A DNA stretch of 64,000 bases from Vairimorpha necatrix (Eukaryota): contig CP142735.1 of assembly GCA_036630325.1 (NCBI GenBank), positions 310,001-374,000 of the forward strand. The letters are read 5' to 3'. Positions within the stretch are counted from its first letter, which is position 1. Every line of letters starts with the position of its first letter. The notes under the pieces are model-generated. The model was not told the origin of the DNA. It saw nothing but the letters and a program-made list of their open reading frames with translations, and did not search any database. The position numbers and the translations under genes are program-made. This document shows positions 8,286 to 49,404 of the stretch, in pieces.

Positions 8286-8318
8286 TTTTTTTTCTTGCAA
8301 GTAAGAGGTAGGGAGAAA
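8286..8318 (-). repeat. 3' end and poly(A) of a second copy of the SINE at 27007-27798
   Basis: T8-CTTGCAAGTAAGAGGTAGGGAGAAA, identical to the SINE tail at ~27009-27041; ends just before the Merlin end at 8321. Confidence 0.75.
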
Positions 8319-13921: not shown

Positions 13922-14944
13922 GGCTAAAGTTAGCTTTAGGACGCAAATTTCGATATAGGGTTTTTTTGTTTTATTTTGCCCCTTTTTTTAAAAAATGGAA
14001 GAAAGAATAATGACAAGAGAAGAATTAGAAATAGTGTATAAAAATCTAATTACTAAAAGACAAAATCAGATTTGCAGTGTGTGTATAATAGAATGAGATT
14101 CACGAGAAAACAGAGTTGTGTTTTAATTTGTACCTGGAAAGATTGTAAGAAGCAAACATCGATATGGACGAATACTTTCTTTGAAAACTCCAAACTCGAT
14201 CATATCACAATTTTGCAGGTACTAAATTTGTGGGTTCTTGGCTATTCTCGTAAATTTATTTGCCAAATTCTCAGTTGTTCAAAACCTTCGATATCTTTTT
14301 TACTTAAAAAATTAAAGAAATTAAATCTCTATGATAAATATTTATCATCTTTAAACAAGATAGGAGGAGAAGATATCATTGTTGAAATTGATGAAACTAA
14401 AATCGGAAAAAATAAATATAACAGAGGAAAATTAGTGAAGGGGTTTTGGTGTTTCTGCATGATAGAACGTACTATCGAACGTAAGATTGTGGCTCTGTAT
14501 ATGAAGAAAAGAGATAAAAAAACTCTTACACATCTCTTATTGAAATTTGTTGATACAAAAAGCACTATACATAGTGATATGTGGAGGCCTTATCATTCTT
14601 TAGGCACCTTATTTAAAAAACATTATATGGTAAACCACTCATTAAACTTTCGAGATCCAAATACTGGAATACACACCAATACCATTGAAGGTAATTGGCG
14701 TTCACTCAAAAATTCTATACCTAACAGAAATAGGTCCAAAACCAGCGCCAAACTTTATTTACTTAGGTATATGCTCCAGAGAAATTCCTCTAATTCTGTT
14801 TTCGATGCATTATTAAATTTATTGTTCTAATTTTAATTTTTGTTCCTTCCTCCACATTTTCTTTCTTCCATTTTTTAAAAAAAGGGGCAAAAAAAAACAA
14901 AAAAACCCTATATCGAAATTTGCGTCCTAAAGCTAACTTTAGCC
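13922..14944 (+). mobile_element. Merlin/IS1595-like transposon, transposase nearly intact (ATG 13995, one frameshift, ORF to 14830)
   Basis: Long TIRs starting GGCTAAAGTTAGCTTTAGGACGCAAATTTCG; 8-bp TSD CTTTTTTG; VEIDETK, IHSDMW, HTNTIEGNW. Confidence 0.95.
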
Positions 14945-16618: not shown

Positions 16619-19600
16619 TGTGTTTATTTTCCTTAATGAGGGGTAAAAATAATAAGGATATATAACATCCCCCCTCCAAGACGGTAGTCTCATACTAGAA
16701 CTCATTAATCCCAAGCAGACCTTTTAAATCATAATGCCGCTTTTTCACGATCCTACCATTTTCCAAACTAACTAAGTACGAGTCACCTCCGCAAACTTCC
16801 TTGATAACACCATATCCTAAAAACCTTCCTTTCTCATACTTACTACAACCCGATAAGTTCTCTTTCTTCGCTACCCTAACTCTCTGACCTTTATAGAATT
16901 TCTCTCTTTTGCGAGCCACAAACCTCCTACTATAAAATCCTTCAGGTCCATTCTCGATCATAACATGGCCCGTTTCGTCTCTTGAGGCCTCAAACGGTGT
17001 ACATCTCAACCCTTCATGATAGCTGTTATTATAACGCCATATACATCTATTAACCTTGGCTTCAAAATCCACAGCATCATCTTTCAATATTCCTTCTCTT
17101 ATGGTTCCTATTACCCTTTCCACTCTTCCATTACTTCTATGACTTTCTACGCTTACTTTCCTATGTAATACATTTTCCTCTGAACACCAATTCCTCATAT
17201 ATTCATTACTAAATTCTTTACCGTTGTCAGTAATTATTTCTACCGGTTTCATTCCTGATCCACACAACTGTTTTAAAAATCCTACAACCGAGCTTCCGCG
17301 TTTGACCTCTATTACTTTTCCCCAAACGATCCTAGTATAATAATCAATCACGACCAACACATATTTCCCTAAATCTCTAAACTCAATCAAATCCAAAGCA
17401 ACCTTTTCCAAATAAAATCTTGAACTAACAAAATCACAACCACCACTCTTTTTCCTATTATATATTTGGCAAACTTCACACTTCTTTAAAACATCCTCGA
17501 TATCCTTCTTCATACCCGGCCAATAAAATTCAAACTTCATTGCATAGTACACTGATCCTAAACTTCTATGTCCCAAATTTTCATGAGCATTGACAATTAA
17601 CCCTTCACGCAATTCTTTCTTTGGAATCTCCGCTTCTCTATCAGAGTCAAATACCCAAATTTCCTTTCCATCAACAACTTTAACATGCTTGTCCCATTTA
17701 CCCTGTGCCTGTTTAATACTTCTCTCCTTATTCATTAGCGTTTTCTCATTTTCATGTACCCTACTCAGTGCATCTGCTACAACCATGGTACTAGGCTCTC
17801 TATATTCAATGCTAAAGTCGAACTCTTGAATCTTTTCAATCCACCTGTTAATTCTATTATTGTTAAATGCTGGTTTATTTCTAATCTCGATCAATGCCTT
17901 ATGATCAGTTTCTACCCTAAATCTTCTTCCGCGTAGTTCATATTCAAACTTTTTAATTCCCCAAAAGACTGCATACATCTCCTTCTCACTGATTCCATAT
18001 CTCGTTTCCGTAGGCGTAAACTTTTTTGATGCCCACTGTACTGGTACCCAATTACCTTGATCATCTTCCTGCATTAAAACAGCACCCATTCCAACATTAC
18101 TCGCATCCGTGCGTAACAAAAATTCCTTATTATAATTAACAATTGCTAAACCTTTTAAATCCCTAATCACTTCCCTTAAACTAATATATTCTTTTTCCAT
18201 TTCTTCTGTCCATTTCCAATTACTTCCTCGTCCTTTAAGAGAATCTGTCAACGCCAATGTACGTTTTGCATAATTATCAATATGATTTCTAAACCATCCA
18301 GCCAGCCCAAGAAACTTCCTAACATCTGATACACACTCCGGTTTGGATAATTCTAACGCTTCATTTTGCTTTATTTCAGATGGCAGTATCTCCTTGCCAT
18401 TAACTGTTACTCCTAACAACATCGCCTCTCGTTTACATAATTGAACCTTAGCCAAATTAATTTTCATATTATTCTCCTCTAATATATCCACAGCCTCTTT
18501 CAACAATTTGTCGTGACCCTCTCTTGTCTTACTATGAATCACAATATCGTCCATATAAATTTCGATTCCCTTACCAATAAATTTTTCAAAAATCCCATTC
18601 ATTATTCTTTGTAATATCTGCGGTGAGTTTTTAAACCCCATGACCATCGAATTCCACTCGTATACCTTTTTATTAAACTCAAAAGCCGTCTTAAACCTAT
18701 CCTTCTCTTCAATCTCAATACTATAAAACCCCTCCTTTAGATCTATCACGGTAAAAAATTCAGATCCCTGTGTACTTCTAATAACATCTCTTATCCTAGT
18801 TAACTCATAAGGATCCTTCTCTACAATGTCATTAAGAGCAATTAAATTACTTACTAATCTTATATCACCATTCGGTTTCTCAATCGCTCTAATGGGATTT
18901 CTCCAGTCAGATGTCGACCTTCTAATTATCTTTCTTCTTTCCAAACTATTAATATAATCTTCCGTCTTCTTCAACAAAGCCTGAGCTATAGCCTGCCCTT
19001 TTTTAACAACTTTCTTGCCTTCTTGAGTCTTGATAATACATTTTTCAACCTTACAAAAACTAATATCTTCATCCTCTCTTCCTCCTACCCGTGAAATAAT
19101 CTCCTCTAAATACGCGATGCCTCTTACATCCCTTCTCAACAGAACTCTCTTATTATTGTCCCTTTTGCTATAATCTTGTATATCCCCTAAATTTTTCTTC
19201 TTACGTTTTCCACCATCAACATTATAATAATCACATTTGTCCGAATTGGAATCGTCATCACATTTACCCCCTAAGTCTAATTGCACTTTACATTTACCAA
19301 CATAATTAAAACTACTTTTATTTCTTCTGTCTTCAGAATCTCGCCTCATTCCCCTACAAAATCTAACACTATGGCCTAACTTCCCACAATTGTAGCAACG
19401 CATATTCTTTTTATTTTCCTCACGAGACAACTTATTCTTCTCCTCAAATTTAGCCCATAACGCTAGGGACAACTCTTCAAATTCTTTTTTTCTCACTTGT
19501 TCCTTTTCCTCCTGAATAGCTAGCAACTCTAATTTTTCCTCAATTTCCTTCCAACTACCCTCTTGCGAGATCCTCTCAACAATAAAATTTCTCAATAAAA

Positions 19601-19802
19601 TAGAACCTCTCCTAAAAATTTCTAACTTAAATCCACACTCATCAATTTTCTCTAAAAACAACTCATAAACAATCCTTTTAACCTCTTTTAATAATATTCT
19701 AGCCTCTTGGCCACGGTCCTCCTTTGTAGACCCATTTTCTGGTATCGCCCCCATGTGTTTATTTTCCATAATGAGGGGTAAAAATAATAAGGATATATAA
19801 CA
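16619..19802 (-). mobile_element. Intact minimal Ty3/Gypsy retrotransposon with 49-bp LTRs
   Basis: LTRs 16619-16667 and 19754-19802 (48/49 identical, TG...CA); 5-bp TSD TAGAA; PBS TGGGGGCG adjacent to the 5' LTR; G-rich PPT (GGAGGGGGGA) before the 3' LTR. Confidence 0.96.
16695..19769 (-). CDS. pol: 1024-aa gag-pol polyprotein: short gag with CCHC knuckle, RT, RNase H, integrase; no D[TS]G protease motif
   Basis: CYNCGKLGHSVRFC; YMDD; TDAS..GMGA..EKE..TDH; H..GH..CEVC; DLI, TDNG, SNGRVER. Confidence 0.95.
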   Translation of the reverse strand: MENKHMGAIPENGSTKEDRGQEARILLKEVKRIVYELFLEKIDECGFKLEIFRRGSILLRNFIVERISQEGSWKEIEEKLELLAIQEEKEQVRKKEFEELSLALWAKFEEKNKLSREENKKNMRCYNCGKLGHSVRFCRGMRRDSEDRRNKSSFNYVGKCKVQLDLGGKCDDDSNSDKCDYYNVDGGKRKKKNLGDIQDYSKRDNNKRVLLRRDVRGIAYLEEIISRVGGREDEDISFCKVEKCIIKTQEGKKVVKKGQAIAQALLKKTEDYINSLERRKIIRRSTSDWRNPIRAIEKPNGDIRLVSNLIALNDIVEKDPYELTRIRDVIRSTQGSEFFTVIDLKEGFYSIEIEEKDRFKTAFEFNKKVYEWNSMVMGFKNSPQILQRIMNGIFEKFIGKGIEIYMDDIVIHSKTREGHDKLLKEAVDILEENNMKINLAKVQLCKREAMLLGVTVNGKEILPSEIKQNEALELSKPECVSDVRKFLGLAGWFRNHIDNYAKRTLALTDSLKGRGSNWKWTEEMEKEYISLREVIRDLKGLAIVNYNKEFLLRTDASNVGMGAVLMQEDDQGNWVPVQWASKKFTPTETRYGISEKEMYAVFWGIKKFEYELRGRRFRVETDHKALIEIRNKPAFNNNRINRWIEKIQEFDFSIEYREPSTMVVADALSRVHENEKTLMNKERSIKQAQGKWDKHVKVVDGKEIWVFDSDREAEIPKKELREGLIVNAHENLGHRSLGSVYYAMKFEFYWPGMKKDIEDVLKKCEVCQIYNRKKSGGCDFVSSRFYLEKVALDLIEFRDLGKYVLVVIDYYTRIVWGKVIEVKRGSSVVGFLKQLCGSGMKPVEIITDNGKEFSNEYMRNWCSEENVLHRKVSVESHRSNGRVERVIGTIREGILKDDAVDFEAKVNRCIWRYNNSYHEGLRCTPFEASRDETGHVMIENGPEGFYSRRFVARKREKFYKGQRVRVAKKENLSGCSKYEKGRFLGYGVIKEVCGGDSYLVSLENGRIVKKRHYDLKGLLGINEF

Positions 19803-20015
19803 TAGAATATACAGCTATGGTATTTTGAAACACAGAAGGACAAATTATACGTGACAAAATTTGAACTGTGAATATATTTTAGAAATTAATGATAAATAAT
19901 TACAAGAGATACTTTTCATAATATTTGTTTAGTCTATCAATCTTGAAATATTATATTTAGTGACGTCTGAATGTCCGCGAGTAGATATCTTTATACTTAG
20001 AATAAATTTAAATTT

Positions 20016-24086: not shown

Positions 24087-25063
24087 GGAAGCAGGGGGCC
24101 ACTTTGGTCAAAAAAATGGTATTTAAGCGAATTTGTTTTTTTTACCCCAAAAATGAAAAGTCGAGAGGAAGAGCTCTTGAACATCTTTACAACAGCAATT
24201 CAAAATAAGACTGTAAAGTGTCCAAAATGCGATGCTTACTGTAAAGTAAGTAATAAAAATAAATTAATGACTAAATGTGTTTGGAAAGCATGTCTGAGGA
24301 AAGTGTCATTATTAAAAGACTCTACATTTTATTACAAAAAAACAAATATTTTAGATGTTTTGTTAATAATAAAATTATGGCCTTGTAAGGTTAACCAGAC
24401 TGCTATAGGAGAATTTCTTGATATTGGTAAAAGATGTATTCGACATATCATAAAAAAACAATTTCTACAATTGAAAATAAAGTATACGAACGAACTGGTA
24501 AAATCGGTGGACCAGGAATAATAGTAGAAATAGATGAAAGCAAATTTGGTAAAGTAAAATACCACAGAGGACATCGGGTTGAAGGTGTGTGGGTTTTGGG
24601 GATGGTTGAAAGAACCATCCAAAGAAAGATAGTTATGATTCCAGTCGACGATATGAAAGCCAAAACACTAGAAGAAATAATTAAAAATTATGTTCACTCC
24701 GAATCAATTATACACAGTGACTGCTTCAAGTCTTATTTTAAGTTAAAAGACTATTTTGCTGAACACAAAACTGTTAATCATTCATTGCAGTTTGTAAATA
24801 ATTCCAATAGATGTCATACTAACACAATTGAAGGAAATTGGAGTGGATTAAAAAATGTGACTTCGGCAAGACACAGAACCAGAACATTGATTACTGGTTC
24901 GTTGATAAGATATATGTTAAGAAGGAACTTTGAAGGTGATTTATTTACGAATATTATTAAATTTATTTTTTCTTCCTTTTTGCCGTTTTGACTTTCCAAA
25001 AAAGGGTCTTTTTTAAAAAAAAAATATTTATACCATTTTTTGACCAAAGTGGCCCCTTTAACC
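24087..25063 (+). mobile_element. Merlin/IS1595-like transposon (sister copy of 1015-1997)
   Basis: Same TIR core; 8-bp TSD TACGATCA; ORFs 24153-24521 and 24434-24991. Confidence 0.95.
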
Positions 25064-25590: not shown

Positions 25591-26691
25591 GGTGCTTCTT
25601 TGATATGCGATCGGACACCAAGACCCCCCCCCCTTGTAAAGGAAAAAAAAATGAAAAAAACGTTAAAAAATACTATAAATTTGATTTAACTAAGTAAATT
25701 ATATAATAAATCAACATAACAGTCGTAAAACTCCTCTAAATTATCCCCTATACAAAAACTTTTCCTAAATATAAATTCATTGAGCCATGAATCAATTTCA
25801 TTACGCTTAACTCCATGTTCTTTGGTCATTTCAGATTTTAGCTGCAGCCTGGTATTCTCAATGTTATTGGTATGAGTACCATCTGCAGATTTAAACCCGA
25901 TAGAATGGTTTACTACCTTATGTTCAAGACAAAGATTTCGTGCTACACTTGGATAACTCGGATGACCATCACTATGTAAATCGAACCAACGCCTATTTTA
26001 CCTTCTAGACAACTGTTAAACACTCTACTTTCCTATTATCCACCACTGTAATGTAAAAGTTCGTAGGATTAGATGCTTCTACTATACCTAGTATCCAAAC
26101 AGTATCAGGGTTTATATCATCACAACTTGTTGGATTTCTTATTTTACCTCTTCTACAAATTACAGACTCATCAACTTGGACAATTTTTCCTGGTCCACCA
26201 ATAATAAGCCTCTTAGAAATTTTGTTTTTAAAAATTTCTCTAATTCTTTTTTTTGCATCGGAAACTGTCGATGAAGAAACTCCTAGTTTTGCCTCTAAAG
26301 TAAAATAACTACTCCTACACAAAATTAAAAATATTAATTCACAAAAATTACATAAAGGTAACTTGCTTCCTTTGTTAACTGAGATTTTAGCACTGCATTT
26401 ATAATTAAAACACCTGTATACCACTCTTTTAACCTCTCTCTCCTTATATAATACAACATTTAAAATCTCATTGCATTTAAAGCACGTCTTTTGCTCTTTC
26501 AAGACTTCTAACTCAAGTAATGAGTTTAAACAGTCGTCAATACCATAGAAAAGCCTTTGTATAGCCTGCATTTTGATTTTAGTGCTTTTCTTTGGTATGC
26601 GATCAGAAATTTTAAAGTCACAATTTTCCATTTTTTGGGGATCAGAATTTTTTTTTAAAAAAAAATTCTGATCGCATACCAAAGAAGCACC
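25591..26691 (-). mobile_element. Merlin/IS1595-like transposon, frameshifted
   Basis: TIR GGTGCTTCTTTG(A/G)TATGCGATC; 8-bp TSD TAATTTTT; VQVDESVICRRG in ORF 26005-26712, then SDGHPSY and HTNNIEN. Confidence 0.93.
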
Positions 26692-26819
26692 TAATTTTTT
26701 ATAATATGACAATTCTTATTCAAGCTTATTTTTTTATAAATCTCATTAAATTATGCAAAAAATTATACAATTATATAATATAATTACATGATTTTATAAG
26801 ATCTTATTTATTTGAAATA

Positions 26820-26943
26820 TGTCAATTTCTTTATTTTTATTTCCCATGCCCTCTTTTGGAAATTTTTCTTAATACTTTTTGTAGCCAATTAAATCTGCCA
26901 ATTTGTGCGAATATGATTGATCAGTATATTATTGGCTATGATA
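26820..26943 (-). repeat. Degenerate solo LTR related to 36089-36211/44793-44916
   Basis: TGTCAATT..CCAT(G)CCCTCTTTTGGAAAT..GTAGCCAAT..GGCTATGA; no TSD found. Confidence 0.55.
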
Positions 26944-27006
26944 ATATCTACATTTTTGTATGAAAATTATAATTTGAATGTTGAATTCATACATACGTAC
27001 TTATGA

Positions 27007-27798
27007 TTTTTTTTTTCTTGCAAGTAAGAGGTAGGGAGAAATCTTACATAGGGACCAGAGGGATTTGGGGGTGATCCTCATCCAACTGGTACTGTGAGAT
27101 TCTTACTCACTAAAACTCCCTCCATACACTTGCCGGTGCAGCAAGCTCCGCCGTATCCATTGGACTTTGGCTCCAGGAGAACACTTTCCATTTATACCTC
27201 AAATCGCGTCCAGAGTGACCTCACAGCGGATATACTTAACGGGCATGGTTATCTATAACCCGAGGAGAGACATCATCGTACTGACTCAAAGGTCCCTACA
27301 ATCATCCGTATTGCACACACGGCTCCTTACACGACACATCCCCAGCCCGGCGTTTTTATTGGGCTGCGTTGACCACCAGTCTCCCACTAGTTTCGGCCAC
27401 CGTGTTACAGAATCATGTAGGATAGGGTCCACGAGACCTTCTATTGCCCTACTTCGTCTAGTCTCTTAGTTAGCTCTAGGATCCCACTCTAGAGTGCACC
27501 AGCCATGGGCTCCAACTAGGCCGTACCCATTAGATACTTTTATGTATCATTAAGTCACCAAAGGGCGATACTGCTTTTTGGCCTTGAGGTGCGTTTCTAC
27601 ACTAGATGCTAATCCCCCTGTGGCTGGACACACACAAGTTTCATTGAATCAACTTAATGATTATCGTGGACATTTTCATCATCTGAGTTGTTCCAACTGC
27701 ATCATAGAAAGTAGAAACAATTTTGGTGCCCCTGGGAATCAAACCCAGCCATTGCTCAATGGAAGCATAGCATTCTACCACTGTGCTAAGGGCACCTT
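27007..27798 (-). mobile_element. tRNA-derived SINE (~790 bp) with poly(A) tail
   Basis: 15-bp TSD CATACGTACTTATGA (26992-27006/27799-27813); tRNA-like 5' head; A10 tail; GC-richer non-coding body; second tail copy at 8286. Confidence 0.85.
27724..27796 (-). promoter_or_regulatory. tRNA-like SINE head with Pol III A and B boxes
   Basis: GGTGCCC/GGGCACC acceptor stem, A-box TAGCACAGTGGT, T-arm CTGGG-TTTGATT-CCCAG; anticodon arm irregular, so no amino acid assigned. Confidence 0.75.
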
Positions 27799-28017
27799 CA
27801 TACGTACTTATGAGGTTTTGCTAATATTCTTAATAGAAATCGTGTTTATTCTCGATACATTTATATAATCGCTCTCTCGTTATAAATGAATAAAATATAA
27901 AATCTTCATGATATTAAAATTTCGTTTTATATTATGTTGAAGGAGTTAACAAGCATAAGGGGTTATTTAATAATTATTATAAGGACACCAACATCCCCCT
28001 CCGAAGCACCTTATCAG

Positions 28018-28532
28018 TTAACTTCTTTCATTTTTGTTTTCTTTAAGTGATTCCTCTTTCCTTTTATGTTTCCTATTCACTTTCTTGCTCATGTTATTGT
28101 TACTAATAAGATTACAATATGCCTTAAGTTCATCCAATGAATTATTTCTAGATAGTTCCAAAGCCCTGAAATCGTTACCCGGCCATAATTTTGTCGCCAG
28201 ATGTTTAATAATGAGATTTTCTGAGCATTCTAAGTCCTCTAATTTGGCTGCTATTCGGTCTATAAATTCGTCTCTTGTTTCTGAGTATACTTTATTTTTG
28301 AGACAAATTTTTAATACTTCATCTGATGCAGTGGATTTGGTGGGGCAAAGTGCTGAGATATCCTCCCACTTTTTGATTTTCTTTTCGACTATTAACTTTC
28401 CTAATTCCATATCACAATTTCTAATTAAATGACTGTATTTTTTTCTGGTGTAAGTTCTTTATCTAAATTCAAAAGTTCAGCTATGAACTGCAGATCTTTT
28501 TTTGTTATTTTTTGTCCCATCGCTGCTTCCAT
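28018..28532 (-). CDS. Extra ORF after integrase, gag/capsid-like (one frameshift in an A7 run near 28440)
   Basis: ATG at 28532 follows CCCTAAAA, which contains the pol stop; ETRDEFIDRIAAKLEDL resembles the element's own gag EPMSEWLDRIITVAYDS. Confidence 0.55.
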
Positions 28533-30739
28533 TTTTAGGGTTTAGAATTTTGAAATTTTTTAAGCTGAGCGTGATTACGCTTAGCTTTCTTTACATTTAT
28601 CATAACATAATAAGATTCCATTTCTAAAATTTCTACGATCTTTCCTTCAAATACATATTTGCTATCTGCTTTAGCAGATGATGTATTAGTATTTATGTCC
28701 TGTGTTAATACATTTTCTTCAATGCCAAATTTTTCTTTTTTTAATAATTTATATTCCTTTTTGTATTTCACTCGTTGTGTTTCTTTTACTTCTAGGGGAA
28801 TTCTATTTTCCTACATCTCATTTGGTGTACACTTAATACCGCTGTGATAAGTATTATTAAATCGTTTAACTATATCTGGTAAATTTCTTTCCAAGTTATA
28901 ATTAGGTTCTTCTAAAAACTTTTTCCTTATAATCTGCCATACATTTCTATTTAGTCTTTCGACTCTTCAGTTGGAATGATGTTTTCCCGGGCTTGTATTA
29001 TGAACTATAATCGAGTTTTTCTCGCACCACATTGAGAACTCTTTCGATATGAATTTTCTCCCATTTTCTATTATAATTTGTTTCGGAAGTCCTTACTTTT
29101 GAAAAATTTCTTTCATTTTTTTAAACGTTTCCTTGTTCGTTTTGTTCTTTAGATATTTTATATTAACTTTTCATGTGTAAAGATCAATACATGTAAGTAG
29201 GGGTATAGACTGTTCTAGGAATAAGAGATCGATGCTAACCTTTTCCAATTTGTAATTTGCTTCCACTAACTTTTCTCCACCTTGTGTCTTTTGTTGATTG
29301 CATTGACAAGGTTTACAACGTTTTAAGTATTGAGCAATTGATTCGTTCAGTTTAGGCCAAAAATATTTTCGTTTAATTGCATAAATCATTGCATCTCTTT
29401 CGCCGTAGTTTGTAAGTCTTTCGTGTGCTTCTTCAAAGAGCGCTGGTCTTTCTTCGACTGGCGGGAAGAGCTTTGTTTCTGTACCGTTTACTTTATAGTA
29501 CCACGTACCTTTAGAATCGATGAGCACATTTTTGGGCAGCTTAAAATCGTTCATATGATCTGACGTTTCATAAATTCTACTTAACACATCAGCCTCAATA
29601 ATTTCCGTGCCTTTTTTGTAATGTATTGTGAAATCATAACTTTGCAGTTTCTCCCTCATTCGTTCTAATTTCATATTTCCAAATATATGTTTTGTTTTGG
29701 CATACGTAAGAGCGGTGTGATCGGTTATTACTTTAAATTTATAGCCTTTTAGATATAGTTCATAATGTTGTATTCCCCAAGCCATAGCTAGAAATTCCTT
29801 CTCTGTTATTGTGTATTTTTTCTCTTCTTCCGACAGTTTTTTAGATGCCCAATCTATAACTATAAGTTCACCATCCTTCTCTTGTTGAAGACAAGCTCCT
29901 ATTCCAGTATTTGAAGCATCCGTTGTTAAGACAAATGGTTTTGTGAAGTCTGCTACATTTATCGCTATGTTGGAATTTATCTTATGTTTTATGTTGCAAA
30001 AGGAGTCCTCGCATTCTTTAGTCCATTTAAATTGATCAAGTCTGTAAAACCTTTAAGTGCATCATATAATGGTTGCGAAATTGTTGCTAGATGTGCAATA
30101 TATTTTCTATAGTAGTTGGCAAATCCAAGAAATTTTTGTAAGTCTTTTTTAGTTTTTGGTGTTTTGAAATCAAATATCTTTCTCTGATGTTCTCCTATTG
30201 GTCTTTGCGTTGACCCATTTATCATAGATCCTAAAAGCTTTACCGTTTTGCTTTATATTGCATTTTATCTGCATTTACTTTAAAATTATTATCTGCGAGC
30301 CTTTGTAAGACTTCTAATAAGTTCTAATCATGTTCTTTTTCGGGGTTTCCATATACTATTATATCATCCATATATACCATACATTTAGTTTTCATGATAT
30401 CACATAAGATGTTATCCATTATCATTTGAAAGATTGCTGGTGAATTTTTGAAGCCTTGAGGCATTCTGGTATATTGATATAGATTGTTTCTAAAATAAAA
30501 TGCGGTTTAATATTTATCTTTAGGATCAATTTTTATTTGGAAGAATCCATCTGATAAGTCTAATACCGTAAAAATCTTTTTACCCTGTGTAATATTAATG
30601 ATATCGTTTATCTTTGGGATCGTGTAATTGTTGTCCTCTACAATTTTGTTTAACCATTGCATATTACAGGTTATTCGATACTCTCCATTTGGTTTTTTTA
30701 AGGGCGTAAAGAATTGCACCATGACGAGGTTGATCTTTC

Positions 30740-31860
30740 GGATCTAGTTTGCTACGCGCCCGGAGCAAAACCTAGTTTGTTATACGCCCGGAATAAAAAA
30801 TTAAAGCTTTTAAGAGGAAAGAACTTTTATAGCATGATAATAAAAAAGCAGCATTGTAAAAAAACAGGCTTGTTTTAGAATTATTTATTTTTAGCTTACA
30901 GCTAGTAAAGCTAGTATACTGATGAACGCAGTCTACTTAAACTCATCTCCGAACATCAGTTCAGCCATAAGGCCGGGAAGTTGCGCTTTTTGAACACCAT
31001 ACATTATCTTAATCACAAGCTTCATCTTATTCCAGAATGACTCAATGTTCTGGATGTGGGCTCCAGTTATCGGATCAACGAAATTTGTCTTGTGGTTCAC
31101 GACCAGATGACGGAACCCGAGCTCTCTTTCAATATTCGCATATGATCTCCAGCCATCTGAGTGAATGATTGGGCCAGGTCTACATATCTTGGCAATGATC
31201 GGAAGTAAAACACCAGCTGATCTATTTGGGACAATCTCCATATAGTACTTCGCAGGATAGAAAGTGGTGTCTGCGATCCTTAAATCCTACACATCACTAG
31301 ATGGTGCTTTGCCATGATGATGTTTGATCTTGTGGACGAACTGGCTTTCTTCGATCTGGCAAATAATACCTGGACCTCCCAATCTCATAGGATAAGCCTC
31401 AAAGTATACTTTAAGGATAGTCCTCAGCTTGTTTATAACCGCCACGATGCTGTTTCTTCTAAATCCATGGTCTAAAATAATCTCTTTAATCTGTTTTCCT
31501 TCGCTCCGAAGCATAATCATGGCGAAGATCTCAGACAATGGCAATTTAAATCCCTTAAAAAAGGATCCAGTTCTAATGCTCTTTGTGGTCCTGTCGAGCC
31601 TGCCCACTTTATTATCGCAAGTCTAGCATATAAGGTCTGGCCCTTTCTTCGATCACTCAACCATGCCAGATGAACACTTAGAACAGGACATACTGGTCAG
31701 AAGAAGGTTTGTTCTTGCAGAACAGAAATCATTTGTAAAGTTGGCACCCTGCGGATTTGTACGTAAATTTCAAACTGCTACACAACCGTTCTCATTGGGG
31801 TAAAATTTTCTTAACCTAGTTTGTTATACGCCCTATTCGGGCGTATAACAAACTAGATCC
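30740..31860 (-). mobile_element. Merlin/IS1595-like transposon, degraded
   Basis: TIR GGATCTAGTTTG(C/T)TA..CGCCC; TSD GATCTTTC/GATATTTC; IHSDGW and HIQNIESFW. Confidence 0.9.
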
Positions 31861-33214
31861 GATATTTCTATATAACCTAAATTCAAGAGTTTTGTAATGG
31901 TTTGTTGTGTACCCTCTATGTCACATTGTGGTATGTTTCTTTTTTTGATAAAAAAATTTTTTTTTCTTTGTATCTATTGTGCACATTATTTTATTATATC
32001 CTTCTGTTGGTTCATCATTAAAAACTTTTTGAACTTTTTCTTAAGTTCTTTCATCTCATGTCTTGATTTTTGGACATTTATTATAGTTGGGTTACCGATC
32101 AAGAGGGAAATCGATACATTGTTCTTAATATAAAAAGTTGTTGTTATCTGTATGTGATTTTTTTTCACAGTCAATTCTACGTATTCAGTTAGGGTGTTTT
32201 CTTGTCCAAAAATATTCGTTACTGTAATCTCTTTCGTCTCTATGTTAAGAAATCCTTTTTCTTCAATAAGCGCCCTACTAATTAAGTTTAAATTGCTACC
32301 CGTGTCTACCACTGCATTTATTTTATCTCTAGCAAAAAATACTTCCATAGTCTTAACTTCTCCTAGTGGTGTTTGTAGATTGTTAATCGAAAATATTTTT
32401 GAATTCTTTTTTTGTTCTTCTTTTAAGGTTGTTTTTTGGTTTTACCTGTTCAATGTTCTGAGTTTGAGGTTTTCTTATTTTATGGTTTTCTCTTTTTAAT
32501 ATTAAAAATTCTTTTCTCCTTAATAATTCTATCTTGTTCTGCTAATCCTCGTGTACTGACTGGTTAGAAAAGTAGTCACTAAAAGTTAAGAATCCTTCTA
32601 AAGTTAAAAATGTTCTTGAGATAATTTGTTTAGCAAATTCTCCATCCATACCAGAATCATAAGCAACAGTTATAATTCTATCTAACCATTCACTCATCGG
32701 TTCATTTAACCTTTGTCTAGCTTCCAATAGTTTCAAAAGAGTTATTTCCTCTGTCATTTTTTTAATCGACCCTTTAGTTGCCCCCATGTAACATTTGTAA
32801 ATTTTTGTTTGTTTTTGATTATTAAAATTTGAGCCTCCCTATCAAGAATCTTAAGGAAGATTGATATTTGTTCCTTTTCATGAATAATGTTATGAGCTTT
32901 AAATTGGAGCTCCAAATATTCTATGTCTGCTTTGGCTTTAGCAATTCTGAATGTTAGTCCTTCTATTTTTTGTTTCGTATCGGGTGCCATGTTGAAGGAG
33001 TTAACAAGCATAAGGGGTTTATTTAATAATTATTATAAGGACACCAACATATTATATTAAAATGTTGTATTTTTATACAGTATTGTTTTCCAAAGGGGTA
33101 TTGGTTTTTTTCCCACAATTATATTCTTTATAATGTACCTCGATGTATTCCAATAATAAGAATTCATCTTTAAATTCAAAAAATCTTTGTTATTTATTTA
33201 TACAAAAAAATATG

Positions 33215-34531
33215 GAAGGCCATCTTATTAAGAATCGAAAAGTTATGTAAGACTAAGCTGAATGCGAAACATTTGTTTAAAGCAATCAATGAACATGGAA
33301 TAGGCCTAATAAATTACTATATAGGAATAATAGATGCTGAACCAGAAGAATACAAGATCATAGACGACAACATCAGAAAATTATTGATTAAATATCACGT
33401 CCATCAACAACCTGCAACTAAAGAAAGATTATATCTCTCCAGAGCCGAACTTGGAAGAGGGCTCCAATGCGTAGAACATAAAAGTGAAAGAATGCTTTTA
33501 CAACTAGCCAAAGAATTTGAAAGCACGAAAGAATCTGTTCTAAGACGCAAAGCGAATTTTCACTCAGAGAAAACTGGCTACACATATCTATCCATTATAG
33601 AAGGATATATAAAAGAGAAATATAAACTTAAGGAAAACGTAACAGCTAAAATATTAATAGAGGCTCAACCCGAATCTCTTTATAGCGATATAAAAATAAA
33701 AACAAACCATTCAAAGCTATTTAAACCAAGAGACGATCCACTTATTGATATAAAACAGGCTGCCACGTGGCTAACAAAAGGAAATATAAGCCCGAGAGAG
33801 GAAGGCAATTTATGTGCATTACAGGACCGAAATATTTTCTTAGAGAAGCAGATAAAAAGCCCACACTGCCATGAATATGCAAAGACAGTAGATCATATGG
33901 CCACCCAATGTGATCGTATGCTTTCACATGATTACATGAGACGGCATAATGAGGCACTGCGATGCATCCACCTGCAGTTGTGTAAGACGTATGGTCTATC
34001 CCATGCCAAAAGAATTAGAAATCATTCAGTCCAGGAATGTGTTGCTAATGAGTATGTTGAGATACGAGTCGACAGTAGATACATTCAAGTATTAAAATAA
34101 AGTATAACAAGCCTGATATACTAATTGTAGACAAGTCGAGGAAAGAAGTGATCGTTGTAGAAGTTGGAATCACAAGTTTTAACAACCTCCATGCAGTAGA
34201 AACAGAAAAGAAACATAAATACGACTAGCTCGCAAATCATGTGGCTTCTCTTTACAAATACAAGCCGAAAATTATTCCTTATGTGATGACGTGAAATGGA
34301 ATAGTAACTAATTTTCACCGTACGCATATCAAAGTGCTCAGATTAGAACCCAGAACGGAAGCATTTATAAAGTCAAGAGTCCTTAAAATGACTTTAGAAA
34401 GCCTAACTATGTCAGCCAGACATGGGCTTGATACAGATCGAGAAGGGGTCTTCGAGAGCCCAATGAGTGAATCTCGGAAGGAAGTCCTTGAACTGCCAGA
34501 TGAGACTGTAAGCGTATCTTGTGAAAAGTAA
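33215..34531 (+). mobile_element. 5'-truncated non-LTR retrotransposon (R4/Dong-like; RT thumb, CCHC-like knuckle, REL endonuclease)
   Basis: KAINEH, ERLYLSRAELGRGL, HC..TVDHMATQC, YMRRHNE, then PDI..VEVGIT..EKKHKYD across frameshifts and stops. Confidence 0.85.
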
Positions 34532-40636: not shown

Positions 40637-41739
40637 GGTGCATCTTTAGTAACGGGCCAGAAGGTAAGGGTCCCCCTTATAAACAAAAAATTTAGAAAAA
40701 ATACATAAAAAAAATATAATAAGGCAGTTTTAATTCAATAACTTAGATAATAGATCAAGAAATCCATGATAAAAGCCGTTTATGTCGTCTTCTCGCAACA
40801 TTTTCTTTCTAAACATAAACTCGTCTAGCCAAGTATCTATTTCAGACCGTTTTACTCCATGTTCTTTTGTCATCTCTGATTTTAATTGTGACCAGACGTT
40901 TTCAATGTTATTTGTATGTATGCCATCAGTTGATAAGAATCCTATAGAATGATTAACGACATGATGATCCAAACATAAGTTCTCGGCAACACGAGGATAA
41001 CTCGGATGCCCGTCACTGTGTAGCACCGAACCCACGCCAATTTTTCCCTCTAAAGCGGCTGTAAGGCATTCAACCGTTCTATTTTCTACTCTCTTAATGT
41101 AAAAATTTGAAGGGTTTTGTGTATCAATTATGCCTACGATCCAAACGGTGTCCCTTATGTAATCATCGGCGCTTTTAGGGGACCGTATTTTACCCCTTCT
41201 GCAAATTACGGATTCGTCTACTTGGATAACTTGACCCGGTCCACCTATTACCATTCTATTTCGGATGGTTTCCCTAAAAATACTTCTTAACCTTGCTTTA
41301 GCCGATGAAATTGTAGCAGTAGAAATACCTAATCTCGCCATTATCTGAAAGTAAGAGTTCCTACACAGTATCATAAAGATAAGATCGCAAAAAGTAAATA
41401 ATGGCAGTTTGCAGCCTTTATTAATAGCTTCCCTGACATTGCATTTGTAATTCATGCAACGATACGCTCCTCTAGTAACGACCACTTCTATCCTAGGCCC
41501 TAACTTCATTATAGAGCCACACTTGGTGCATTATTTTTCTTCTTTTAGAACTTCTAAATACACTAAAGACTCTAAACAGGCGTCTAAGTCATGAAAAAGT
41601 CTTTGTATTAGCACAAGCTGCATTTTGGTGCTTTTCTTTAGTAACGGGCCAGAGTTTTCAAAATTTGTATTCTCCATTTAGGGGGGTAAAAATTATTTTT
41701 TAAAACTGTAAAATTCTGGCCCGTTACTAAAGATGCACC
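40637..41739 (-). mobile_element. Merlin/IS1595-like transposon (ORF 40730-41509; N-terminus disrupted)
   Basis: Perfect TIR GGTGCATCTTTAGTAACGGGCCAGAA; 8-bp TSD TAAAATTT; IQVDES, LHSDGHPSY, HTNNIENVW. Confidence 0.95.
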
Positions 41740-47093: not shown

Positions 47094-49404
47094 GAATCAT
47101 GGGTATAATACGACATATTATGTCGTATTATACCCGTTAAAAATATTTTTTATTTTTTACCCTCAAAATGAGAAATAGAACTTCAAGATTGGAACAAATT
47201 GTAAGAATTCGAAGCTTCGAAGTAGAATATGTGATCGAGATATTAAGAAGAAAAAATTTGTTACTTACTTGTTTAAAGTGTAAGTATTGTCATGAATATA
47301 TGTCAGAAAGAATTAAAAAAGATGTAATCGATGGAAGAGCTTGGGTATGTTATAATTCTAAATGTGTAAAAGCATTATCGACTTATAGCATACGCACTAA
47401 TTCTTGTTTTATGATTAAAATTGAGTTTATCTGATGTCTGGACAGTTATAATTTTGTGGCTAGAGAATAAAAATATAATGTCAGTTTCTCATAGTTATGG
47501 AATTAATCGAAAGACTGTTTCTAAAATATATTCTAAATTACGTATTTTAGTATCAAACCACTTATTAGAGGATCCTGTTTTGCTTGGAGGAACTGGAATT
47601 GTATGCCAAGTGGACGAATCTTTATTTTGTCACAAGCAGAAATATCATGTTGGTAGGGTGTCAGATCATCAAGTATGGATATTCGGGCGCTACTTCATTT
47701 TCTTGCCCCCCCTAGAAAAAAAATTATTTAGAAGAAATTTTATTTATTCCAACCTACAAAGTTTTAAAATTTTTATATAAGCACACCTATGATCATCATT
47801 ATTAAAATAATTGATATTTTTTTTTCCAAGCGAATTCTTTTAGAAATAAATTTATCCTATGCCTTTTAAGCCCCATTCTCGATCTATATTCATTCTTCAA
47901 ATGGGACCACAAATTTTCTATATTATTTGTGTGGTCTCCTTCCGCATTTATAAACCCAAGCGATTGATTTACTTTGTAATGTTCACTCCCAAAATTTTTT
48001 AGAGGCTGGGGGCATAAAGGGTATCCATCAGAAATTATAATAGAGCCACGTTTTACTCTGTGTCTAAAAAACTCTTCAATAGTACCAGATTGTCGATTTG
48101 GTAGCAATTCAAGAACAAATTCTCTACAGTTACCTTCTACTATGCCGCCTATAATCCATTGAATTCCAGACATGGAATCCAAAGTTGAAGGAGGATTGGA
48201 TACAATTTCCCCATTGCATATGGCGGTTTCATCAAATTGTACACAAACAGAAGTTCCTCATATTTGGTAGCTATCATCGCTTTTAGAAGCAATGACTTCC
48301 ATCACTGTATTCTTGATTTTAATATATGAATTTTCACATATTTTGCAAAGATATATTGCTTGGTAAGTAGTATAATTTAATGCCCAGCCATAGAATGCTC
48401 TAAGAATTCTGTGAAATTGAACGCTTATCCCTTTAAAATCGTACCATTTTTAAGTGAGCTCTTCGAACTACACTTTTTATTAACACAACGATAAGCTTTG
48501 CCGTCAATTTAGCCGGAACATCCATTAATGTTCATAAGAACAGTTCGTTCTGATGTCGAACAATGTCTGCAAGCAATCGATCTTTTTAGAAGACTATTAT
48601 CTAAAAAAAATCAATTACTGCTTCATTGTGCCTAAAGCACGCATCTTCGCAGATATTTAGCTCCCGAATAGCTTCCTTTAAATTTCTTATTAAGGATTAA
48701 AAAAATAAAATTTTTTAACCCCTTAATGAGGAATCTGAAGGAGGCATTTAAAAATTCTCAAATCGACAAAAAATACCTTAACTTCATTTTCTTGCCCCCC
48801 TCAAAAAAAAATGTTTAGATTTGAAAAATAACACGATTTTGTATTTTTTATGTATGTTTTTTTTAGGGGGGGCAAGAAAATGAAGTAGCGCCGATATTCG
48901 GTATAGTCGAGACAAGCTTCATACCGGCAAAAGGATATATGAAGGTAGTAACTAATAGATCTGCTGAAACTCTACGGCCTATAATTAAAAGTGTTTGTAA
49001 AGAGGGGGCTATTATATATAGCGATGAATAGGCGACTTACAAAAAAATAGAGGAAATATTAGGCTTCGAGCATCACACAGTAAACCATTCTATTAACTTT
49101 GTGAATACTAACACAGGAGTTCATGCCCAACATGTAGAATCATACTGGGCTAAACAAAAATACAACATCAAAAAAATGAAAGGTATAAAAAAAGAAGTAT
49201 TACAATATTATCTCGATGAAATTATGTTTAAAGATAAATATAGAAGCCGGACTCTAACTATTTTGCTTGGTTTACTGTTTGTTTTTGAATAAAAAATCTT
49301 CACTTTATTTTTTATATTATATCTAAATCTGCGAAAATTTTATTTTTTTGATATGTCGTATTATACCCACTAGGTGGCAATATGTCGTATTATACCCATG
49401 ATCC
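47094..49404 (+). mobile_element. Merlin/IS1595-like transposon with a nested Merlin
   Basis: TIR G(A/G)ATCATGGGTATAATACGACATATT; 8-bp TSD AAAATAAT; CQVDESLF before the insert, HAQHVESYW after. Confidence 0.92.
47686..48892 (-). mobile_element. Merlin/IS1595-like transposon nested in 47094-49404
   Basis: TIR GGCGCTACTTCATTTTCTTGCCCCCC; 8-bp TSD GATATTCG; SDGYP and HTNNIENLW. Confidence 0.93.

Follow-up and report, generated by a model that had tools for sequence, protein, structure and literature searches.

The window, i.e. the whole 64-kb stretch of DNA analysed here, contains an element that is very probably a complete and fairly young member of a tRNA-derived SINE family, resident and mobile in a microsporidian genome of the Nosema/Vairimorpha group. 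The element consists of a tRNA-like head, a non-coding body, a structured 3' domain and an A tail, Table 1. It is bracketed by an exact target site duplication (TSD), and a corresponding empty site exists in public runs. Head, body and ends recur together in a multi-copy family, and the genomic context is microsporidian.

Anatomy of the element

Table 1. Features of the SINE, with positions in the window.
Feature	Positions	Strand	Basis
SINE element, full length	27798-27007	-	792 bp = 782 nt + A10
Upstream TSD copy, 15 bp, sense TCATAAGTACGTATG	27799-27813	-	exact repeat
tRNA-like head: two A + 73-nt cloverleaf-like unit (27796-27724)	27724-27798	-	ARAGORN, Infernal/Rfam
A box TAGCACAGTGG	27778-27788	-	motif fit
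B-box-like motif GGTTTGATTCC	27735-27745	-	motif fit
Central non-coding body, about 588 nt	27136-27723	-	ORF listing, similarity searches
3' terminal structured domain, 119 nt	27017-27135	-	fold compared with shuffles
T4 run inside the 3' domain, sole one on the sense strand	27112-27115	-	sequence
A10 tail	27007-27016	-	sequence
Downstream TSD copy, 15 bp	26992-27006	-	exact repeat
Lone tail copy: last 25 nt of the element + A8	8286-8318	-	33/33 identical, BLAST

ARAGORN reports a single tRNA-like gene in the whole 64 kb, and this is the head of the element (anticodon CAT). In an Infernal alignment the head matches the Rfam tRNA model from end to end, and its score of 24.7 bits (E 0.013) stays below the gathering score of 29. 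The 7-bp acceptor stem is intact, as is the T arm, and the anticodon loop departs from the canonical form. The predicted fold has a minimum free energy (MFE) of -30.8 kcal/mol (z -2.27), and 7 out of 200 shuffles are equally stable. Scored against the consensus motifs, the A box fits at 11 out of 11 positions and the B box at 10 out of 11, and the boxes are 32 nt apart.

Judged by its sequence, the head is tRNA-derived but degenerate, and it presumably acts as an internal RNA polymerase III (Pol III) promoter. From a promoter of the tRNA type, Pol III would initiate near the start of the element, 2 bases before the tRNA-like unit and 10 before the A box. The head does not look like a functional tRNA gene: its score is below the gathering threshold, its anticodon loop is atypical, and it sits together with the body inside a TSD-bounded unit.

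The element has a GC content of 0.47 compared with 0.309 for the window, and it is the most GC-rich 792-bp stretch found there. On the sense strand the longest stop-to-stop frame is 59 aa, and a 123-aa antisense frame has zero protein relatives among 5.8 billion clusters. We looked in the body for internal repeats and for a second tRNA-like unit and found neither, and the body gave no match to Rfam at relaxed thresholds. At gathering thresholds, nothing in the whole window was reported by Rfam. The body is that of a non-coding, non-autonomous element. Taken as a whole, the element folds weakly better than its shuffles (z -2.16, 20 shuffles). A scan for bacterial promoters and terminators was empty and is irrelevant to the element.

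The first-pass annotation had described most of this anatomy. It gave a cloverleaf-like head with A and B boxes on the minus strand, a GC-richer non-coding body of about 700 nt, an A10 tail, an exact 15-bp TSD and an identical tail at 8286-8318, all of which are recovered here. It had also given weight to the presence of only one T4 run. The run itself is there, but its rarity is not significant: shuffles of the element have on average 2.46 runs, and 26% of 2000 mononucleotide shuffles have at most one (P = 0.26). The single T4 run was therefore rejected as a special feature. It lies about 100 nt before the end of the element and was counted against the SINE reading, as a T4 run could stop Pol III in some organisms.

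The lone tail copy stands out clearly in BLAST (E 2.5e-11), while none of the other in-window matches of the element is better than E 0.5. Either the SINE inserted here in an extremely 5'-truncated form, or a LINE that ends in the same tail left its truncated end. No TSD could be seen around it by eye, and its flanks match nothing related to the element.

Insertion, family copies and genomic context

At a spacing of 700-915 bp, the window contains just two exactly repeated 15-mers, the TSD and one AT-only word. To study the insertion and the family, 2.4 kb of the window (26200-28600) were compared with the contigs of four public runs, X1-X4, at an identity of at least 80%. An empty site was found in one contig each of X1, X2 and X3, where position 26975 is joined to 27799 (27800 in X3). 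The 27-28 letters between these positions correspond to the diverged left flank (27 bases left of the TSD), followed by the TSD 15-mer once. The empty site is paralogous or orthologous, and its identity is about 90% in X3. Since it has no element and a single 15-mer, the head, the body, the tail and one 15-mer must have arrived together.

The ends of the element are also seen as repeat boundaries. In diverged contigs the similarity starts at 27006-27008 and stops at 27798, and one contig of 86% identity aligns from 27152 up to exactly 27798. The boundaries at 27007 and 27798 show that head and body form one unit. In X2, 21 contigs have loose ends just outside 27007, consisting of a longer T run (plus strand) and then unrelated sequence.

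An A-rich tail, a TSD and an empty site, the marks of target-primed reverse transcription, are all present. The 15-bp duplication indicates staggered nicks. The first nick, as deduced from this insertion, is at antisense ...TATGA/GGTTTT and provides no T-rich primer for pairing with the A tail. The motif AATAAA is absent within 300 nt of the tail, which argues that the A run is templated and not the result of mRNA poly(A) addition.

Within the window there are one full copy and the 33-bp tail, and the other copies come from the public runs. Among the 24 listed runs, 20 contain some sampled words of the element and 3 contain half or more. The 2.4-kb stretch is matched by 359 contigs in X1 and 558 in X2, and these copies may sit in the parasite, in the host or in both. 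In the identity classes 99% and above, 95-99%, 90-95% and below 90%, we find 68, 82, 79 and 130 contigs in X1 and 118, 154, 153 and 133 in X2. X3 contains near-identical pieces of the element, and X4 contains short pieces alone that are mostly diverged (7 out of 12 below 90% identity). At variant positions of the element, 2-19 contigs in X1 and 8-57 in X2 have the other letter, compared with 1-5 and 1-7 at flank positions. Overall, 13-57 distinct contigs cover single positions of the element, and 1-7 those of the flanks. A dispersed multi-copy family with a common head, body and termini is thus found on the contigs of X1, X2 and X3. Small shares of the words of the element also occur in bovine, soil, root and freshwater metagenome runs, which are uninformative on habitat or host. 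The exact 24-nt tail has 0 occurrences in metagenome, viral and genome contig collections and 0 in a literature text search.

The summed contig depth is 390-735 in element bins and 0-122 in flank bins of X1, and 5,552-292,855 compared with 100-26,015 in X2, where depth is not the same as copy number and cannot rank the parts of a stretch. The peak of 26,015 in the flanks of X2 falls on a short sequence with further copies in the window. A depth gradient in X2, with the tail deepest, was considered as evidence of 5' truncation and dropped, as depths are unsuitable for this and X1 has no gradient.

Compared with the letters that prevail in X1 and X2 alike, the copy in the window shows five substitutions and one 1-nt indel. 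These few departures indicate that it is young and not the master sequence. Two further sites, 27127 and 27363, are majority variants in X2 alone, which suggests that the organisms of X1 and X2 have different dominant subfamilies with separate amplification histories.

Some contigs differ in structure. Three X1 contigs part from the element exactly at the head/body junction, 27723, and X2 contigs have internal deletions of 73-516 nt relative to the window copy. These breaks and deletions hint that sister families exist whose heads differ or whose bodies are shorter.

Transposons make up nearly all of the window, with Ty3/gypsy polyproteins, many IS1595/Merlin-type transposases and one LINE remnant. 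One of its Merlin/IS1595 transposases is 79% identical to a Vairimorpha necatrix protein, and 16 out of 16 Merlin matches bearing an organism name are microsporidian (Vairimorpha, Dictyocoela, Enteropsectra, Anncaliia). By these similarities, and by that of the LINE ORF described below, the window is assigned to a microsporidian of the Nosema/Vairimorpha group. The SINE is located upstream of a Merlin-type transposase frame (26005-26715), at a distance of about 290 bp, and on both sides it is flanked by sequence that recurs elsewhere in the window. The Merlin element and the repeated flanks around the SINE show an insertion into microsporidian DNA.

Several other features of the window were observed. 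At least seven Merlin/IS1595-type frames of several subfamilies are present (1124-1654, 14057-14830, 24431-24991, 26005-26715, 30933-31622, 40730-41530 and 47802-48257), three of them confirmed by Pfam DDE_Tnp_IS1595 and the others assigned by eye from common motifs. An uninterrupted 1039-aa frame of Ty3/gypsy-type gag-pol occupies 16695-19814 on the minus strand, in a region with a GC skew of -0.44 to -0.54, and probably represents an LTR retrotransposon that was active recently. A 62-bp stretch 140 bp upstream of the SINE (27934-27994) recurs at 32989-33050 with 98% identity, beside the LINE remnant. Two adjacent frames are found at 61504-62745 on the plus strand, and the second carries a DUF5906/VapE-like P-loop helicase (Pfam E 6.5e-07 and 7e-04). 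Helicases of the D5-primase-helicase type are usual in viruses and large mobile elements, and one would not expect such a frame among microsporidian repeats.

The 3' domain and a putative partner LINE

In the predicted fold of the 3' domain, the last 12 nt pair with the start of the domain by a long-range stem that encloses two hairpins. The MFE is -41.1 kcal/mol compared with a shuffle mean of -28.1 (z -4.20), and 0 out of 200 shuffles are as stable. Variants GYGRG occur among the loose ends of the family contigs. On the basis of this fold, the domain, with the A tail, is probably the recognition module for the reverse transcriptase of a partner LINE.

We infer a cycle in which Pol III would start about 2 bases before the tRNA-like head, guided by the internal A and B boxes, and the transcript would run through the body of about 0.7 kb, the 3' domain and the templated A tail. 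An autonomous LINE from the same genome would supply the reverse transcriptase, which would bind this RNA, probably via the 119-nt 3' domain and/or the A tail. The LINE enzyme would nick the target and copy the RNA by target-primed reverse transcription, and a second nick 15 bp away would lead to the duplication.

The domain has a weak, sub-threshold match to the Rfam model R2_retro_el (RF00524) at 27033-27121, with 21.8 bits and E 0.04 compared with a gathering score of 38. One 32-nt hairpin is missing in the alignment to the model, and at 27042 the base that matches the model is the rarer variant among family members.

A single LINE remnant occurs in the window, at 33174-34531 on the plus strand; it is 5'-truncated and has two in-frame stops after 34100. 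Its family has a single ORF of about 1145 aa, in which Pfam recognises the reverse transcriptase domain alone. The ORF has a CCHC motif followed by a PD...E.K restriction-like endonuclease motif, which places the LINE in the R2 superfamily. Most known members of this superfamily are site-specific. The ORF is 83% identical to a Vairimorpha necatrix reverse transcriptase and has 0 matches to PDB sequences. Relatives at 41-62% identity occur in records from octopus, wasp and mite, and also in contigs that were binned as bacterial MAGs and are probably eukaryotic contamination. According to the repeat table of Nosema bombycis in the main text of Pan et al. 2013 (PMC3614468, Table 2), the main LINE class of that genome is LINE/Dong-R4 (1.04%), and the R2-superfamily motifs of the LINE in the window agree with this.

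Several searches were made for a direct link between the SINE and this LINE. With BLASTN, the element has no match to the remnant in the window, and the 3' region of the remnant matches nothing in Rfam. In a tblastn search with 70 LINE proteins against the element, the best E is 0.26. A covariance model of the 3' domain was also built, with two identical copies of its one sequence as input. In the window and in the LINE relative L001 it finds only itself, plus hairpins inside Merlin elements of at most 20 bits, and in two further relatives, L002 and L003, it finds nothing (best score 8.3 bits). A comparison of the tail with LINE 3' ends, as proposed at first reading, gave no shared end in the remnant or in these three relatives from metagenomes and MAGs, where L001 and L002 have no 3' end and L003 has an unrelated 3' UTR. 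A partner LINE with the same tail was thus found neither in the window, nor in a LINE relative of another organism with 58% identity (best aligned segment), nor by the structure model.

The R2-type LINE remnant and the weak match to the R2 3' UTR are two weak leads in the same direction, and the direct tests of a link are negative or uninformative. A tentative and rather doubtful proposal is that the SINE is mobilised not by an APE-type LINE but by a restriction-like-endonuclease LINE (R2 superfamily, Dong/R4-like, dominant in Nosema-group genomes), via a closed 119-nt 3' domain faintly like the R2 3' UTR, and that it would be the first characterised SINE family of Microsporidia. If true, a SINE with a tRNA head, a poly(A) tail and a TSD would be paired with an R2-superfamily LINE, which would be an unusual combination.

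Alternative origins and known systems

The composition of the element had raised the idea that the family is native to an animal host, e.g. an insect, and was horizontally transferred to the microsporidian, where it was mobilised by a compatible LINE or transferred with one. The GC peak fits this, and so does the CpG observed/expected ratio of 0.53 in the element (27017-27798), compared with 0.82 in the window and 0.69-1.04 in five other transposon segments, with 0 out of 5000 shuffles as low. The depth of the element in X2, up to about 1000 times that of most flank bins, would fit a host-borne family in a mixed sample, and host-to-Nosema transfers of other transposons are described in PMC3614468, PMC4038834 and PMC4202319. 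However, the runs with the element also contain the microsporidian flanks and the empty site, and the spread of identities from above 99% to below 90%, with dominant variants that differ between X1 and X2, looks like long residence and independent activity and unlike a recent arrival. In an AT-rich genome, structured sequences derived from RNA normally exceed the genome in GC, and a high GC content is expected of a young element of this kind and proves nothing on transfer. The CpG loss is one-sided (TpG 1.29, CpA 1.01), whereas symmetric methylation decay predicts otherwise; this strand-asymmetric depletion is an unexplained oddity and gives at most a hint. On balance, an origin in an animal host is unlikely.

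A clearly smaller chance is left for an internally deleted, non-autonomous LINE derivative (SIDE-like) that happens to have a tRNA-like sequence at its start, with transcription by read-through or Pol II, i.e. for an element that is not a Pol III SINE. Deleted LINE derivatives are described in PMC3414825 and PMC6740152, and the length of 0.8 kb, the weak R2 3'-UTR-like match at the 3' end and the internal deletions of the X2 contigs would agree with such an origin. Yet the tRNA-like unit, 2 nt from the start of the element, is complete, its A box is perfect and its B box nearly so, and the element has zero coding remnant of, and zero nucleotide similarity to, the only LINE family in the window. 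The tRNA call by ARAGORN and the same tail standing alone at 8286-8318 might instead be read as a genuine tRNA gene beside a truncated LINE 3' end, or as a one-off retro-copy of a chimeric transcript (processed pseudogene). This is hardly credible: head and body lie together between the TSD copies and are both missing from the empty site, diverged copies have the same head-body unit with both ends, and the head is under the Rfam tRNA threshold. The many distinct contigs in X1 and X2 with the same head and body, and the near-identical pieces in X3, are further copies of the kind that the first-pass annotation had called for, and its reading of a SINE inserted by target-primed reverse transcription agrees with the TSD, the A tail, the empty site and the family contigs.

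Microsporidia are models of genome reduction, yet some of their genomes are packed with transposons. A recently active, high-copy SINE would mean that these parasites keep Pol III and LINE machinery able to drive non-autonomous retroposition. The SINE also supplies presence/absence markers for separating strains and species, and it is a concrete sequence for testing SINE transfer between host and parasite.

A described SINE family of Microsporidia was not found in a literature search of main texts; supplements may contain repeat libraries. Two microsporidian transposon surveys list LTR elements, LINEs and DNA transposons, and the word SINE is absent from their main texts (PMC4202319, PMC7313128). 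In the main text of PMC11585130 the RepeatMasker table has zero SINEs, and in that of PMC13702014 SINE is named only among the repeat categories of the methods and of a figure legend. For Nosema bombycis, from a related genus, the repeat table gives 28,669 bp of SINE, 0.18% of the genome (PMC3614468, Table 2), and the main text presents this row without a sequence, structure, copy number or partner. This row could be the same family as the element. The first suggestion of a possibly undescribed family fits these main texts, including the bare 0.18% row.

The R2 3'-UTR element (RF00524) also has a structured 3' RNA domain, and it has strings such as GUUUUAG and AAGAUUUC in common with the SINE, whose score is far under the gathering score of the model. 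Compared with R2 and the R2-derived SIDEs of PMC3414825, the element differs by its tRNA head, its A tail, its 15-bp TSD and its non-rDNA site. SINEs with LINE-derived middle bodies, as described by Kojima 2018 (PMC5786205), suggest a plausible origin for the long body, although the body of the element has no similarity to the LINE family of the window.

Like tRNA-derived poly(A) SINEs, the element joins a tRNA-like head bearing A and B boxes to a non-coding body and an A tail, and a TSD of about 15 bp, a multi-copy family and 5'-truncated relatives are further points in common. Fungal examples of tRNA-derived SINEs are Mg-SINE of Magnaporthe and Foxy of Fusarium. Some SINE superfamilies, among them CORE, V, Deu, Ceph, Nin and Meta, are defined by a conserved central domain, and no Rfam model of such a domain matched the element. 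SINEs are usually under about 600 nt long, and the element with its 782 nt and A10 is longer than this, about twice the usual length for tRNA-derived SINEs, as its early description as unusually long had implied. The other difference is the host, a microsporidian. Length and host are the unusual points of the element, which is otherwise of an ordinary kind and has an anatomy that would not surprise a transposon specialist.
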